DNA of 64,000 nucleotides, from sequence record NC_014662.1, one strand, 5' to 3'. The position numbers and the translations under genes were made by a program. Position 1 is the stretch's first letter; each line of letters starts with the position of its first letter. Under the pieces are notes generated by a model. It had not been told where the DNA came from and did not search any database. It saw only the letters and a program-made list of their open reading frames with translations. Below are positions 23,234 to 38,016 of this stretch, piece by piece. Origin of the DNA: Enterobacter phage CC31.

Positions 23234-23408
23234 AAAGTTTAAGAATGAAAAACGCTACCTTTAAAGCCTCTTCTTTACTTAAACGAAGAGGAGAGCCGGC
23301 ATAACATGCTCCTTCAGGGACGGCATGCTCCAAAACAATTTCATCTTCTTTAGTGCGAATGTCTAAACTTCCTAGATGAAATTGTTCATATCCCCAAGGG
23401 TCTTTCAT
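23202..23408 (-). CDS. hypothetical protein
   Basis: 68 aa ORF. Confidence 0.3.
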   Translation of the reverse strand: MKDPWGYEQFHLGSLDIRTKEDEIVLEHAVPEGACYAGSPLRLSKEEALKVAFFILKLYAGEVNEPKS

Positions 23409-23698
23409 TGCATTTCCTTAATAGCTTTTAAGAAGTTATCAAGATTCTTTTTACTGCAAAAAGATACGCAGCCATAGCTTCCATCTTTTGCTTCAAAAGT
23501 AAATGAATCATCACCATAATCAGTGTAATCAATATTAGGACATTGATTACATTCAATCAGATGTGCTTTGTCCAGACGAAAATGGATTTTGAACAAATCT
23601 TCATCATCTACATGACCAAGTTTGCAAAAGTTTCCACGTACTTCAAGAACCAGAGGACCATGTACTGAACCGCTTTCAAATGTATGTTTCATAATCAC
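23405..23698 (-). CDS. hypothetical protein
   Basis: 97 aa, Cys/His-rich (C..H..C..C) possible metal site. Confidence 0.35.
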   Translation of the reverse strand: MIMKHTFESGSVHGPLVLEVRGNFCKLGHVDDEDLFKIHFRLDKAHLIECNQCPNIDYTDYGDDSFTFEAKDGSYGCVSFCSKKNLDNFLKAIKEMQ

Positions 23699-33963: not shown

Positions 33964-34271
33964 ACCTTTTCCTCTAAGAAGTCAGACAGTTTAAAATCTT
34001 TACGGTCCATCAGACCATAGTGAATGTTCTTCAGCGTATCGTACATGTCCCAGTACTTTTCTTTTAGCATATTACCAAATGGTGGAATGTAAAGCTTATC
34101 CCATTTGGCAGCTAACTCACCGTTGCGCAGTTCTCCTGGAACATTTTCAACGATACGTAAAACTTTAGTTGCAACCTCATAATCGGATGGCGGAATCCAT
34201 CCCCAATTATGATGTACTGAACCGTTAATTTCGCCATTCAGCGAAGTAAAAATTGTAGCTGGACAACTCAT
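33960..34271 (-). CDS. hypothetical protein
   Basis: 103 aa ORF. Confidence 0.4.
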   Translation of the reverse strand: MSCPATIFTSLNGEINGSVHHNWGWIPPSDYEVATKVLRIVENVPGELRNGELAAKWDKLYIPPFGNMLKEKYWDMYDTLKNIHYGLMDRKDFKLSDFLEEKV

Positions 34272-34630
34272 CGTGTACCTCTAATACCTTGAATAAAGTT
34301 TAAAGCATCTTCACCTGAAGGAACTTCTTTAGACTTAGATTTTCGTTTAAAGAGTTTCCACTCTTTCTTTTGGTCGAAGGTTCCACGTTGAACCTGCCCA
34401 AGATAAAATAACCACTTTCCAATCCAGTAGAATGGAGTTAAAATGCCAGCCATCCAGCCAACAAAAAGTAATTGTTCTCCATAAAGAGGACTAAAGAAGT
34501 ACAATCCCCAATATAATCCAAACCCATTAAGCATTGTGAACATAAAGCAAATAATAATAGTGCCAATAGTCCATCCGAAATTATCATATGAACCAGCATC
34601 TTTGAATCCGCGAAATAATGTTTTAATCAT
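34268..34630 (-). CDS. small 2-TM membrane protein, paralog D of tandem array
   Basis: 120 aa; two hydrophobic helices; C-terminal LNFIQGIRGTR. Confidence 0.45.
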   Translation of the reverse strand: MIKTLFRGFKDAGSYDNFGWTIGTIIICFMFTMLNGFGLYWGLYFFSPLYGEQLLFVGWMAGILTPFYWIGKWLFYLGQVQRGTFDQKKEWKLFKRKSKSKEVPSGEDALNFIQGIRGTR

Positions 34631-34965
34631 CGTTTAATCCTGCATCTGGAGATAAAGTTCTCTAAATTTTGTTTGTCGTCGTAAATGGCCTTGGCTTTAG
34701 TAAACAGTTTAACATGAATTTTACAATAGCACCATTTGATAAAAGAAGCTAAAACTATTACCACGAATAATGAGCATAAAGCACTTAGTGGTACAGTGAT
34801 AATCATTTCAGCTACAAAACCGTTGAACCACCAAACTGCGAAATTTGATAAGAAAACAGTAAGTATAATAATTGTCCAACAAACGTTGTCCTCATATTTC
34901 GACTTGAATCTGTCAGCAATTTCTCGTTCAAAATGTCTGATATTCATTTTAGGATTGTATTTCAT
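34627..34965 (-). CDS. small 2-TM membrane protein, paralog C
   Basis: 112 aa; C-terminal ENFISRCRIKR. Confidence 0.45.
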   Translation of the reverse strand: MKYNPKMNIRHFEREIADRFKSKYEDNVCWTIIILTVFLSNFAVWWFNGFVAEMIITVPLSALCSLFVVIVLASFIKWCYCKIHVKLFTKAKAIYDDKQNLENFISRCRIKR

Positions 34966-35302
34966 TTTTACCTCGGCATTCCGTAATGAATTCTTCTGAT
35001 TCTCTGATTATTCTATTATGAAGAACTTTAGCATTCTGTTCAGCTAAGCGTTTATTTTCTGGTCGCATCACCCACCAAATAGCAATTTCTTGTGATTTTC
35101 CGTGAGACCAAAGTAGAACTGGAATAGAAAGAAACATTGATACTACAACCCAAATTGGAGCATATACTCCGTCATTAAGTATTAAAGCAGGAACAAAAAT
35201 TAAAAGCACCGCCACTGAACTAAAAGCCAAAAATATTATCATATGTAAAAATTCTGCTTTTGCTGCAAGCTCTCTTAATTCACTTTTTGGTTGATACCCC
35301 AT
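34949..35302 (-). CDS. small 2-TM membrane protein, paralog B
   Basis: 117 aa; C-terminal EEFITECRGK. Confidence 0.45.
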   Translation of the reverse strand: MGYQPKSELRELAAKAEFLHMIIFLAFSSVAVLLIFVPALILNDGVYAPIWVVVSMFLSIPVLLWSHGKSQEIAIWWVMRPENKRLAEQNAKVLHNRIIRESEEFITECRGKNEIQS

Positions 35303-35304
35303 GA

Positions 35305-35679
35305 TTATTTCCTCGCTTTACGACAGTCGTTAATGAAGCATTCAAACCGTTCAGCTTTGCTGAGCTTTGATATTATTCTATTTCTTCGCATGCCAATTAA
35401 AATTTGTGCAATAAAATTAACAAATTCACCAATCAGCATAACAATGATACCAAACATTCCCCAACCAAAGCATGTGAATGCAGCCATTGCTCCAGCAGAG
35501 TCAGCTCTTTCTTCTTTTGGAAGATTTGTGATATCAGACCAACCCCAAAATACAATAATTCCGTATAGTGTCAATGCAACGCACCAGCAGAGCTTTTCAT
35601 TTCTGGTCAAAATATATCTGACTTTGGTTGAAAGAGAATCCGTTTTAGCAATTTTAGCTTTAAGTTCAGTTGAATTCAT
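35305..35679 (-). CDS. small 2-TM membrane protein, paralog A
   Basis: 124 aa; C-terminal ERFECFINDCRKARK. Confidence 0.45.
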   Translation of the reverse strand: MNSTELKAKIAKTDSLSTKVRYILTRNEKLCWCVALTLYGIIVFWGWSDITNLPKEERADSAGAMAAFTCFGWGMFGIIVMLIGEFVNFIAQILIGMRRNRIISKLSKAERFECFINDCRKARK

Positions 35680-35712: not shown

Positions 35713-36630
35713 TCATTTGAACGGACGAATCATATCAAAGTTTTGTTTAAAGCGTTTGACATAATCTGTCTTTCCAAGTTTCTTATGCATTGCAACTATC
35801 TTATGGTAGTTTTCCCATGCATATTCACGAAACCAGCCAGATGTAATGCTAGTACAAACTTTTTCCAAAGCGTACATAAATGAACCCGTAGGGTCTGGGT
35901 TGAAATTATTTGGAATTTGATGGCGTTCTAAAGCAAGTACACAAGTTTCTTCATATACACCTGCAAGCTTAAGTTCTTCAGGAAGAGAATCGAACTTCTC
36001 TTTTGAAGTCATTACTTCAGAGCCATCTTTCATGTAGAAAGTATAAGCAGGACGACCAGCTAAAGCCACTGCTTCATGAATTGAATCGTGGTCATAGATG
36101 TAAAAATCATCTTTAAAGAAAGAATCTTTATCTACATCCAGATTAGGATGAGAATATGCTAATGTTTCTTTCTGGCGCAGTTCAGAAATCTTTTTCAGTT
36201 TACTGTCTAAAACAATTCCTTTATTACGCAAGAAACGAATATGATGCATAGTCTTTTGAAAGAAACGAGTGTTCTTCTTGAAACGATGAGACATCTTAAT
36301 TGCTAAGCACATCTCAGGAGTTGCCCAATACATCTGTGAAAGCGCATCATAGCACCCATTAAATACTGCGTAGTGAGCAAGCAGTTCAGATGAACTCTCG
36401 TCGTTATATTCAAAAATGTATGCTTCAAAATAGGTCTCACGACCATTATGCATGCATTTAAAGGCTTGTACATTAGGAGATTGAACTTCGACCTCTGTAC
36501 CATTCATACGGTTTTTGAAATGGAGCCATTCGCCCGGAGACGCGATGAAGTCCCAATCAGAATTCTTAACATCACTGTACTCAATGAGTCCATGGTGATG
36601 TAGAGCTCTAGAACCAATAACCAGCAACAT
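35713..36630 (-). CDS. hypothetical protein, 305 aa
   Basis: ATG with AAAGAGGAAAA RBS and early promoter at about 36660-36688; N-terminus LLVIGSRALHHHG...SDWDF faintly NTase-like but not assignable. Confidence 0.45.
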   Translation of the reverse strand: MLLVIGSRALHHHGLIEYSDVKNSDWDFIASPGEWLHFKNRMNGTEVEVQSPNVQAFKCMHNGRETYFEAYIFEYNDESSSELLAHYAVFNGCYDALSQMYWATPEMCLAIKMSHRFKKNTRFFQKTMHHIRFLRNKGIVLDSKLKKISELRQKETLAYSHPNLDVDKDSFFKDDFYIYDHDSIHEAVALAGRPAYTFYMKDGSEVMTSKEKFDSLPEELKLAGVYEETCVLALERHQIPNNFNPDPTGSFMYALEKVCTSITSGWFREYAWENYHKIVAMHKKLGKTDYVKRFKQNFDMIRPFK

Positions 36631-36659
36631 AATATTTTCCTCTTTAGAATGTAGAACTA

Positions 36660-37001
36660 CTATAACACACTTGACTGATGTTGTAAACGGTTCTTTCTAC
36701 ACATTCTGATGAAGTTTTCAATAGGCTCTTCTGGTCTATTGGCTGGATAGCATTTCTTCCAGTTCCACCCTCCCAGCAAGTCAAAGATTTGGTCAGGAAG
36801 AGAATCCCATGGATGTTCTCTTTCGCGGAGTTGAAGCACAATATCACCGGCTGCTTCTCTAATTCCAGTATCAAGTTTTCCATTACAAATCACGACATCC
36901 ATGAGTACTGCAAGACAACAACTATCATGGCTTCCGTATTTGTTCGGATAGTAGAAATAATGGTCAATAATGTAGCAGCAATTACGGTCTAAACCTTTCA
37001 T
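36660..37001 (-). CDS. hypothetical Cys-rich protein
   Basis: Track ORF trimmed to ATG 37001 (MKGLDRNCCY) with GGAGGAA RBS; hairpin at 37022-37044 between it and tRNA-Gln. Confidence 0.4.
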   Translation of the reverse strand: MKGLDRNCCYIIDHYFYYPNKYGSHDSCCLAVLMDVVICNGKLDTGIREAAGDIVLQLREREHPWDSLPDQIFDLLGGWNWKKCYPANRPEEPIENFIRMCRKNRLQHQSSVL

Positions 37002-37064
37002 AGTGTTCCTCCAGTGATTCTGGGGAAACTTTTCAGTTTCCCCATATATTACCATTAACAGCTG

Positions 37065-37137
37065 CTAGTGTACCTGGACTCGAACCAGGGAATCGTAGAA
37101 TCAAAATCTACTGCCTTACCAACTTGGCTATACCCCA
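37065..37137 (-). tRNA. tRNA-Gln (anticodon UUG)
   Basis: Minus strand TGGGGTATAGCCAAGTTGGTAAGGCA-GTAGA-TTTTGAT-TCTAC-...CCTGGTTCGAGTCCAGG; anticodon loop gives TTG; coordinates approximate. Confidence 0.7.
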
Positions 37138-37143
37138 ACTGTT

Positions 37144-37220
37144 TGGAGGCGGGTGATGGACTCGAACCATCGCGTAACGGGATATGAACCCGTCATTCTA
37201 CCAACTGAAGTTAACCCGCA
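37144..37220 (-). tRNA. tRNA with CAU anticodon (Met or lysidine-type Ile)
   Basis: Anticodon arm ACGGG-TTCATAT-CCCGT, T arm GATGGTTCGAGTCCATC, CCA encoded; pos 1:72 mismatch and irregular D arm lower confidence. Confidence 0.55.
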
Positions 37221-37340
37221 CTTATCCGGATTCCTGAAGTACAACGGCTGCTTTATGTAGAACTCACCTATTGTGAGGGAACAAAATCACTGGTCCTGGC
37301 ATTAATTATGGACCACCATCTTCAGGAACTGCCTCGTATT
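37221..37340 (-). ncRNA. structured spacer in tRNA cluster, candidate small stable RNA
   Basis: About 120 nt without ORF or tRNA; long-range complement ttcctgaagt/acttcaggaa and internal hairpin GGTCC...GGACC; T4 carries two small RNAs of unknown function in its tRNA cluster. Confidence 0.3.
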
Positions 37341-37416
37341 TGGCGGACCTAACGGGATTCGAACCCGTGACTCTCACGTGACAGGCGAGTATTTTCACCG
37401 CTGAAACTATAGGTCC
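37341..37416 (-). tRNA. tRNA-Asp (anticodon GUC)
   Basis: 76 nt with CCA; acceptor GGACCTA/TAGGTCC; anticodon arm CTCGC-CTGTCAC-GTGAG; T arm ACGGGTTCGAATCCCGT. Confidence 0.7.
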
Positions 37417-37658
37417 AAATTATCTTTCGTGATTATGTGAATCCCTCAGGTTTTCCGGAAAACCGAATAGGCGACAAAAGCTCTCATATACCCGTGCACA
37501 GATATAATCTTTGTTAACTAGTGTCTGAATCAGTATAATCCGAAAGATAACTTTCGGCGCCGTATTTAATTTGAGATATGTAGTTATCGTTGAGGGAACT
37601 CATATTCAGGGATTAACATGCCGACGACTTTGTCAGAACGTCTTCCAACTTCTATATT
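37417..37658 (-). ncRNA. structured spacer in tRNA cluster, candidate small stable RNA(s)
   Basis: About 240 nt without ORF or canonical T-loop; hairpins GGTTTTCC/GGAAAACC and CCGAAAG-N4-CTTTCGG. Confidence 0.3.
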
Positions 37659-37743
37659 TGGCGGGTCGTGCAGGTATCGAACCTGCCTAGTCATTTCTGA
37701 CACGGATTAACAGTCCGCCGCTTACCCTCTCAGCCAACGACCC
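37659..37743 (-). tRNA. tRNA-Asn-like (anticodon GUU) with unusually long variable arm
   Basis: 85 nt with CCA; perfect acceptor GGGTCGT/ACGACCC; anticodon arm GCGGA-CTGTTAA-TCCGT identical to the recalled E. coli tRNA-Asn arm; 15-nt variable region GTCAGAAATGACTAG. Confidence 0.6.
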
Positions 37744-37748
37744 AAATT

Positions 37749-37823
37749 TGGTTCTCCGTAAGAGAATTGAACTCTTCTTTCCGACGTGAAAGGCCGGCGT
37801 CCTAACCGATAGACGAACGGAGA
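37749..37823 (-). tRNA. tRNA-Glu (anticodon UUC)
   Basis: Acceptor TCTCCGT/ACGGAGA; TCGTCTA...GGAC D arm; anticodon arm CCGGC-CTTTCAC-GTCGG; T arm AAGAGTTCAATTCTCTT; CCA encoded. Confidence 0.75.
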
Positions 37824-37824
37824 T

Positions 37825-37902
37825 TGGTAGGACGTGAGGGAGTTGAACCCATCGACATTCCGATTAAAAGTCGGATGCTCTAACCAACTGAGCTAACGTC
37901 CT
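37825..37902 (-). tRNA. tRNA-Lys (anticodon UUU)
   Basis: Acceptor AGGACGT/ACGTCCT; D arm TAGCTCAGTTGGTTAGAGC; anticodon arm TCCGA-CTTTTAA-TCGGA; T stem pairs imperfectly in my reading. Confidence 0.6.
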
Positions 37903-37940
37903 GTAGATATTTATAATAACAAAAATATCTTTAAGCAAAT

Positions 37941-38016
37941 TGGTGGGAATAACTGGACTCGAACCAGTGACCTAACGATTATCGGTCGTTTGCTCTACCA
38001 ACTGAGCTATATTCCC
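37941..38016 (-). tRNA. tRNA-Ile (anticodon GAU)
   Basis: 76 nt: GGGAATATAGCTCAGTTGGTAGAGCA-AACGA-CCGATAA-TCGTT-AGGTC-ACTGGTTCGAGTCCAGT-TATTCCC-A-CCA. Confidence 0.7.

Follow-up and report, generated by a model that had tools for sequence, protein, structure and literature searches.

Do four small membrane-protein genes that are packed head to tail in a T4-like phage descend from one repeatedly duplicated gene, or is the short tail in which their products end the main thing that they share? The question is raised by a 1.4-kb array in Enterobacter phage CC31 (NC_014662.1), of which a 64-kb stretch, hereafter the window, was analysed as a whole. The phage is a Karamvirus similar to Enterobacter phage PG7 (Straboviridae, Tevenvirinae), and the array is part of the e-to-tRNA accessory region, with the tRNA cluster on one side and nudE/e on the other. 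It consists of four consecutive genes, here called A, B, C and D (Table 1). An initial annotation had placed at this locus four minus-strand open reading frames (ORFs) of 112-124 amino acids (aa), encoding two-transmembrane (TM) proteins with related C-termini, and had explained them by repeated duplication and divergence; the ORF list contains all four exactly as placed. We found that A-D are four distinct small inner-membrane proteins, belonging to the class of T4 e.2 (full-length), e.3 and e.4, and that the tail they have in common is also carried by soluble proteins of unrelated sequence.

A C-terminal tail shared by five neighbouring genes

All four proteins end in an F-I-x-x-C/I-R tail, D having Ile where the others have Cys, and the tails are those quoted in the initial annotation. 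The pattern F[IVL]xx[CIS]R occurred seven times in all six-frame ORFs of the window, and five of these seven occurrences were at the C-termini of A, B, C, D and the ORF at 36660-37055. When the pattern was sought within the last 18 residues, it was present in 5 of the 189 window ORFs of at least 60 aa, while 2000 shuffles gave a mean of 0.33 and a maximum of 3. The frequency of the tail is far beyond chance. The five tail genes are neighbours, with only a DUF7275/DUF7277 gene intervening, and the product of the fifth one (36660-37001) carries the tail ENFIRMCRKNR.

The tail was also modelled independently of the window, by a 15-column hidden Markov model (HMM) trained on non-Karamvirus families only. 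Proteins C and B and the ORF at 36660-37055 were the top three of 395 window ORFs in this search (E of 0.002, 0.003 and 0.046). Membership in the FIxxCR-tail set was defined by the pattern [LI]-E-x-F-[IV]-x-x-[C]-R at no more than about 16 residues from the C-terminus, and by a locus between the tRNA cluster and nudE/e of an enterobacterial Tevenvirinae phage. A-D all carry this pattern (with I for C in D) at such a locus. Elsewhere in the window, at 23405-23698 on the minus strand, a 97-aa Cys-rich ORF that is conserved in PG7 ends in ...KKNLDNFLKAIKEMQ, with a tail-HMM E of 0.46; this end is possibly a degenerate copy of the tail, 11 kb from the array.

Membrane topology of the four proteins

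In each of A-D, the Wimley-White octanol scale gave exactly two 19-residue segments, with strongly favourable energies of -9.6 to -15.9 kcal/mol, in agreement with the two TM segments that the initial annotation had assigned to every protein. On the Kyte-Doolittle scale, the second segment of D is weaker. Positive-inside scoring covered A, B and C. Their N- and C-terminal regions have, respectively, 7 and 10 Lys/Arg residues in A, 3 and 9 in B, and 7 and 10 in C, while the inter-helix loops have 2, 0 and 0. Since Lys and Arg are found in the termini and not in the loop, the positive-inside rule predicts that these three proteins are N-in/C-in, with a cytoplasmic tail. The architecture of D is the same. 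Each protein matched an HMM of its own PHROG over its full length, with full coverage (E of 3e-83, 2e-76, 2e-60 and 3e-53 for A, B, C and D; phrog_23997, phrog_27909, phrog_16360 and phrog_9350).

The tail across enterobacterial Tevenvirinae

The distribution of the tail was surveyed in 50 T4-like loci around the lysozyme gene e, taken from IMG/VR and searched with a loose tail pattern. The pattern was found in 123 of 1788 ORFs, nearly all of them upstream of e, and the carriers comprised 110 distinct proteins from about 25 families. Their family-weighted consensus was [LI]-E-x-F-[IV]-[K]-[E]-C-R-[GK]. Some carriers, such as T4 e.3 (EFVIDCRKIK) and e.4 (KFVKESRCK), have two TM segments each; others have none, namely T4 e.5 (EKFVKECREY, 202 aa), EcS1 ORF146 (270 aa), Moon gp139 (95 aa) and the product of window 36660-37001. 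The carriers without TM segments fall into two superfamilies. One is the T4 e.5 type. The other is a small Cys-rich type, with the 36660-37001 product among its members; relatives of this product occur as small soluble tail proteins in other genera. Between soluble and TM families, the alignment is limited to 10-25 tail columns. The e.5-type proteins (phrog_2607, 154-273 aa) and the small Cys-rich proteins (Moon gp139, 36660-37001) thus carry the same motif as A-D in the same gene cluster, but they lack TM segments, and outside the tail neither type is related to A-D or to the other.

Copy number across related phages, a comparison that the initial annotation had called for, ranged from 0 to 4 TM-plus-tail genes per phage, and Karamvirus, with four, tops the range. 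The tail was absent from the sampled distant T4-like phages (e identity of at most 56%), and a tblastn search with a 20-aa consensus tail matched 511 phage records, all of which were enterobacterial T4-like phages. As judged from these searches, the tail is confined to enterobacterial Tevenvirinae, upstream of e.

T4 itself has matching small two-TM ORFs with the same tail, e.3 and e.4, in the e-to-tRNA region, in keeping with the location first proposed for the array; the full-length form of e.2 has this tail too. No annotated gene in the first 50 kb of T4 carries the tail; at 64-76 kb, the carriers are e.5, e.4, e.3 and a 51-aa ORF that corresponds to the severed C-terminus of e.2. This ORF (T4 67472-67627, minus strand) is found where no gene is annotated, between nudE and e.2, and encodes the missing e.2 C-terminus, ...MPWRLRRQQKIFDEKKYAQNLNNFITECRKLK. 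By sequence comparison, T4 e.2 (102 aa) is a split gene, the intact 162-aa form of which is found in RB51-type phages. The T4 genes e.2-e.5 give early RNA, and their proteins were detected in infected cells (PMC9697503 supplements).

Tail codons and the Shine-Dalgarno sequence of the next gene

The codons of the tail vary. Across families, the tail Arg is encoded by CGT (27), AGA (24), AGG (13), CGA (11), CGC (9) and CGG (1), the Cys by TGC (41) and TGT (37), and the Phe by TTT (63) and TTC (29). Because Arg uses six codons, the conservation of the tail must act on the protein. Conservation at the DNA or RNA level, in the form of a recombination linker or an RNA element, was considered and rejected, as the codons differ among A-D and across families.

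The end of the Arg codon and the ATG of the next gene are separated by 8 nt (median), and that gene has its Shine-Dalgarno sequence in tail positions +2/+3 (AAG-GAA, GAG-GAA) or +5/+6 (AGA-GGT, CGA-GGT, AGG-A). In the window, such sites are present in the tail codons at 34973-34981, 34639-34647 and 34280-34288. When the next ATG is 5-12 nt away, Arg is encoded by AGG, AGA or CGA in 89% of the cases, and AGG reaches 37% compared with a background of 6%; when the next ATG is outside this range, the Arg codon follows background usage. The coding of a Shine-Dalgarno sequence explains the preferences for K/E and G at the variable positions, but not the conserved F, I/V, C and R.

Selection, variation and natural loss

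The array region was matched, at 82-93% nucleotide identity, by 31 phage records, in which genes A-D are conserved; with few exceptions, the records are from T4-like phages of Enterobacter, Klebsiella or Cronobacter. In PG7 and in each further Karamvirus record examined, they are annotated coding sequences (CDS) in identical order. Across 14 Karamviruses, the ratio of nonsynonymous to synonymous substitution rates (dN/dS) was 0.21 for A, 0.38 for B, 0.12 for C and 0.12 for D, with values of 0.05-0.07 in neighbouring genes. A-D are under purifying selection.

Within B, the TM hairpin is variable, with a ratio of nonsynonymous to synonymous polymorphism (pN/pS) of 0.59 and 11 invariant columns out of 52, while the cytoplasmic region, of 50 residues, hardly varies (pN/pS 0.28; 35 of 50 invariant). 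We considered whether the TM hairpin is a mere variable anchor. This holds for B and partly for A, and is ruled out for C and D by their even constraint. Gene B also has several divergent alleles, with 62-92% protein identity within the genus, whose differences are nearly confined to the N-terminus and TM hairpin. Synonymous polymorphism (pS) is raised in this variable part as well (0.44 vs 0.20), which suggests that B alleles have been exchanged by recombination.

Two phages have lost parts of the array naturally. Enterobacter phage KMB20 has a clean 621-bp deletion that removed gene A and residues 1-81 of B (equivalent to window 35060-35679). The deletion ends correspond to two copies of a 9-bp repeat, GAAAATAAA, one upstream of A and one inside B. 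In Entb_43, D is interrupted after 18 codons, and a shorter CDS is annotated (equivalent to window 34268-34630). The natural loss of A and B and the truncation of D indicate that the genes are accessory.

Relationships among A-D

The pairwise alignment check proposed with the array was non-significant for five of the six A-D pairs (Smith-Waterman against shuffles), and C-D alone stood out, with a z of 3.06. Direct profile-profile comparisons among A-D gave P values of 5e-4 to 0.14, overlapping those of reversed-sequence controls, and once the last 20 residues were trimmed, all A-D pairs were at background. The four proteins are four separate PHROGs. Orthologues of C are found in Moonvirus, at 36% identity and in single copy (Citrobacter phage Moon gp136), and those of D in EcS1 (Kagamiyamavirus), Serratia phage CHI14 and over 100 Klebsiella phages; A and B hardly occur outside Karamvirus. 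With C and D represented by separate orthologues in other genera, any common origin must be old. Whole-gene paralogy cannot be read from the tail, since it is present in two unrelated soluble superfamilies as well. In 5.8e9 proteins, family A had 16 clusters only, all at least 64% identical, family C had 8 clusters (and 5 representatives in 1.84e9 proteins), and the 113-aa soluble family had 5 clusters; with families this narrow, the profiles stay shallow.

The best statistical relative of A-D is the full-length T4 e.2 family (phrog_2203, 'membrane protein', 162-197 aa). It aligned with each of A-D over about 55 columns that span TM2, the linker and the tail (HHalign, 84-92%), with P values of 6e-7 to 8e-6 against 0.01-0.2 for reversed controls. 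In hmmscan, phrog_2203 matched A (E 0.002) and C (E 3.9e-5) in the C-terminal part only (~100 positions), the matches beginning at profile positions 68-78 of 166, and did not match B or D. The e.2 family differs from A-D in an extra soluble N-terminal domain of about 75 aa; A-D lack it, their first TM segment starting from residue 18-30. Against tail-trimmed A-D, the e.2 family was at or near background, and B alone kept a P of about 6e-4. The T4 proteins e.3 and e.4 (phrog_2330 and phrog_2604; 120 and 130 aa) resemble A-D in their region upstream of nudE/e, their two TM segments, their charged cytoplasmic C-terminus and their tail, but A-D gave no match to these PHROGs at E<=0.01, and the tail alone aligns in profiles. 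In iterative HMM searches, common matches linked A to C to the full-length e.2 family, and B with D; B and C also have a common M-x-Y-x-P-K N-terminus. The proposed duplication and divergence is thus only partly supported: an indirect link of all four proteins, through the full-length e.2 family, stands, while similarity between the four, whether pairwise or in tail-trimmed profiles, does not. We conclude from these comparisons that A-D are at most ancient, highly diverged relatives in a loose e.2/e.3/e.4-like class, and not the product of a recent tandem expansion.

Proposed role of the tail and alternative explanations

A-D have a common C-terminal module, in which a weakly conserved TM2 and charged linker are followed by the strongly conserved [LI]-E-x-F-[IV]-x-x-C-R. 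The spacing of the tail suggests an amphipathic helix, on which L(-3), F(0), I(+1) and C(+4) would share an arc of 100 degrees, with Arg beside them. We tentatively propose, as a reading that is quite possible though not yet probable, that the tail is a cytoplasmic docking helix that links TM and soluble carriers to one common partner. Such a portable helix would dock early accessory proteins on a host protein, a phage protein or each other, and the two-TM carriers would hold this interaction at the inner membrane. With an amphipathic helix kept on three unrelated scaffolds, docking on a shared partner is the simplest explanation. In its favour are the enrichment of the tail, its presence on both soluble and TM proteins, its selection at the protein level, the early expression of T4 e.2-e.5, the contrast in B between a nearly invariant cytoplasmic region and a variable hairpin, and the helical tail in two AF2 models of low confidence. 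A bolder version, which we regard as doubtful, takes FIxxCR as a portable short linear motif that is present on at least three unrelated scaffolds (two-TM, e.5-type and small Cys-rich) and converges on one cytoplasmic hub, a protein of the host or of the phage. As natural phages lack A and B or D, the role of A-D is probably an accessory one, of host-takeover or exclusion type. Several points weigh against the docking proposal. It is read from a sequence pattern, and a C-terminal helix might just as well be conserved for intramolecular contacts or for oligomerisation. AF2 predicted protein C as all-helix (pLDDT 54) and gave helical propensity for the soluble 113-aa protein (36660-37001; pLDDT 49); at this low confidence, the two models were judged unsuitable for meaningful fold searches. 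The independent tail HMM scored D and A weakly (E of 3.8 and 8), yet at the expected C-terminal position. Finally, constraint is even over the whole of C and D, so that their TM cores are more than passive anchors.

The main rival is ancient paralogy with a structurally required C-terminal helix, which is compatible with docking, the two not being mutually exclusive. In its plain form, one two-TM ancestor was duplicated repeatedly, the cores diverged, and the tail was retained as structurally essential. The like architecture and adjacency of A-D speak for this, together with the reach of all four to the full-length e.2 family across TM2, linker and tail, the HMM chains through A, C and that family and through B and D, the common N-terminus of B and C, and the z of the C-D pair. 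Yet it has to accommodate five non-significant pairs, direct profile P values like those of reversed controls, tail-trimmed profiles at background and membership in four PHROGs; the orthologues of C and D elsewhere mean that the duplication predates those genera, and the tail on two soluble superfamilies requires module transfer or convergence anyway. Plain tandem paralogy is accordingly possible but not favoured by us. That A-D are superinfection-exclusion, immunity or anti-defence membrane proteins, changing the inner membrane to keep out a second phage's DNA, or blocking a membrane-bound host defence, in the manner of T4 Imm, is unlikely. They are small two-TM proteins in an accessory region whose T4 genes are early, natural deletion and truncation are tolerated, the membrane part of B is hypervariable as in an arms race, and PHROGs places the related e.2 family in the category 'moron, auxiliary metabolic gene and host takeover'. 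T4 Imm (83 aa) is likewise a small early inner-membrane protein of a T-even phage, and it has two TM segments. However, A-D have no sequence or Pfam relationship to Imm, whose gene is located elsewhere in the T4 genome, which lacks a FIxxCR tail, and whose function was shown experimentally. A-D had no Pfam match at E<=0.1, in a database that includes the Imm and holin families, and A-D and their neighbours had no NCBIfam, PADLOC or PDB sequence match. A cytoplasmic tail common to soluble proteins is not an Imm feature, and no sequence sign of exclusion was found. Nor do A-D appear to be holins or antiholins, given the lack of a Pfam match and the early RNA of their T4 counterparts.

An explanation at the level of translation, in which the tail is a by-product or cis element of the next gene's translation, as its initiation region or as a nascent peptide that slows the ribosome, is very unlikely. 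It would account for the position of the Arg codon before the next ATG, for the Shine-Dalgarno sequences in the tail codons and for the codon choice that follows them. It would also fit T4 e.4, which starts 4 nt past the e.5 motif although e.5 runs 11 codons further, and the loose resemblance of FIQGIRG in D to SecM GIRAGP. Against it, synonymous codons vary freely at the conserved F, I/V, C and R, both families of Arg codons being in use, the motif is retained where the next start is 17-77 nt away, and other tightly packed window genes do not have it. Known arrest motifs (SecM, RAPP-type peptides) contain Pro; the tail has none, and its -3/0/+1/+4 spacing suits a folded helix and not a tunnel-arrest peptide. 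The least probable explanation is a chance likeness of hydrophobic ORFs, or of non-genes. Single-sequence alignments are indeed weak, but this explanation is refuted by dN/dS values of 0.12-0.38 in 14 phages, conservation in 31 records, the motif statistics and the detection of the T4 counterparts as proteins.

Genomic setting of the array

The gene order is tRNA cluster, small soluble protein, DUF7277/DUF7275 protein, A, B, C, D, two small soluble proteins, nudE and lysozyme e. The array genes are packed head to tail, with a gap of 2 nt between A and B, an overlap of 17 nt between B and C, and ATGA overlaps at C/D and at D and the next gene. The coordinates of these and other features are collected in Table 1.

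Table 1. Coordinates of the array genes, their tail motifs and surrounding features in the window
Feature	Position	Strand	Details
Gene A	35305-35679	minus	124 aa (ORF list); TM 30-48 and 65-83/77-95; tail ERFECFINDCRKARK; phrog_23997
Gene B	34949-35302	minus	117 aa (ORF list); TM 18-36 and 47-65; predicted 50-aa cytoplasmic C-terminal region, nearly invariant, ending EEFITECRGK; phrog_27909
Gene C	34627-34965	minus	112 aa (ORF list); TM 29-47 and 54-72; tail NLENFISRCRIKR; phrog_16360
Gene D	34268-34630	minus	120 aa (ORF list); TM 28-46 and 59-77; tail ALNFIQGIRGTR, Ile in place of Cys; phrog_9350
Tail motif A, RFECFINDCR	35320-35346	minus	residues 112-120
Tail motif B, SEEFITECR	34973-34999	minus	residues 102-110; CGA-GGT codons form the Shine-Dalgarno sequence of gene C
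Tail motif C, LENFISRCR	34639-34665	minus	residues 101-109; AGG-A forms the Shine-Dalgarno sequence of gene D
Tail motif D, ALNFIQGIR	34280-34306	minus	residues 109-117; AGA-GGT forms the Shine-Dalgarno sequence of the next gene
Example tail peptides			KQNLENFISRCRIKR, LLEKFVKECREYV
Fifth tail gene	36660-37001	minus	113 aa, soluble, Cys-rich, no TM; ends PIENFIRMCRKNR...; longest ORF to 37055; phrog_29231
DUF7277+DUF7275 gene	35713-36630	minus	305 aa; between the soluble tail gene and the array; without tail
Seven tRNA genes (Gln, Met, Asp, Asn, Glu, Lys, Ile)	37064-38016		abut the soluble tail-bearing gene 36660-37001
GC-rich hairpin, UUCG loop	35694-35709	minus	perfect, AGGGCCTTCGGGCCCT; between the DUF7275-gene stop codon and the gene A Shine-Dalgarno sequence
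Best sigma-70-like promoter match	36659-36687	minus	TTTACA-17-TATAGT, extended -10; upstream of the DUF7275 gene and the array

The DUF7277+DUF7275 protein is highly conserved, with a dN/dS of 0.05 and 69% identity to Moon gp138. Its gene is flanked by tail-bearing genes in many genera, and one record labels the protein 'putative antibiotic resistance protein'. In Moonvirus-type loci, the DUF7275 gene is separated from a single C-like membrane gene by the gene of a conserved, soluble protein (about 229 aa; Citrobacter phage Moon 3312-4001), the place of which is taken by A and B in Karamvirus. A 2OG-Fe(II) oxygenase is listed beside the C-like match in a related record. Other Karamviruses have e.6-like and e.5-like genes upstream of the soluble tail-bearing gene; the e.6-like (200 aa) and the tail-bearing e.5-like (221 aa) genes are absent from the whole 64-kb window. 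T4 e.6 is a constant neighbour of e.5-type genes, and the idea that it is a PspA-like membrane-stress protein was dropped for want of Pfam support.

The promoter and terminator scan yielded matches at the level of the consensus only. The promoter match upstream of the DUF7275 gene may drive the operon. The hairpin before gene A is not followed by a T-run on the coding strand, and so resembles a terminator less than it does an element of RNA stability or processing.

Significance

The array itself is ordinary: its genes encode catalogued hypothetical proteins of a known uncharacterised class. The notable part is the tail, for its occurrence across families and its dual coding. No function has been assigned to e.2-e.5 and their relatives, even though T4 is one of the best-studied viruses. 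In T4 annotation, e.2, e.3 and e.4 are 'predicted membrane proteins', and in the searchable literature, whose coverage is incomplete, we found omics tables and PeSL papers only, with no function for e.2-e.5 and no mention of a shared tail. For annotation, A-D are best described as e.2/e.3/e.4-class membrane proteins, and not as four recent paralogs or as exclusion proteins.

The tail reduces about 25 anonymous accessory families to a single question, that of its binding partner. It is also a clean case of dual coding, with the amino acid retained and the Arg codon chosen to suit the Shine-Dalgarno sequence of the next gene. If the tail does converge on one hub, these phages would have a modular, 'one tag, many effectors' form of host takeover, in which the codons of the tag double as the ribosome-binding site of the next gene.

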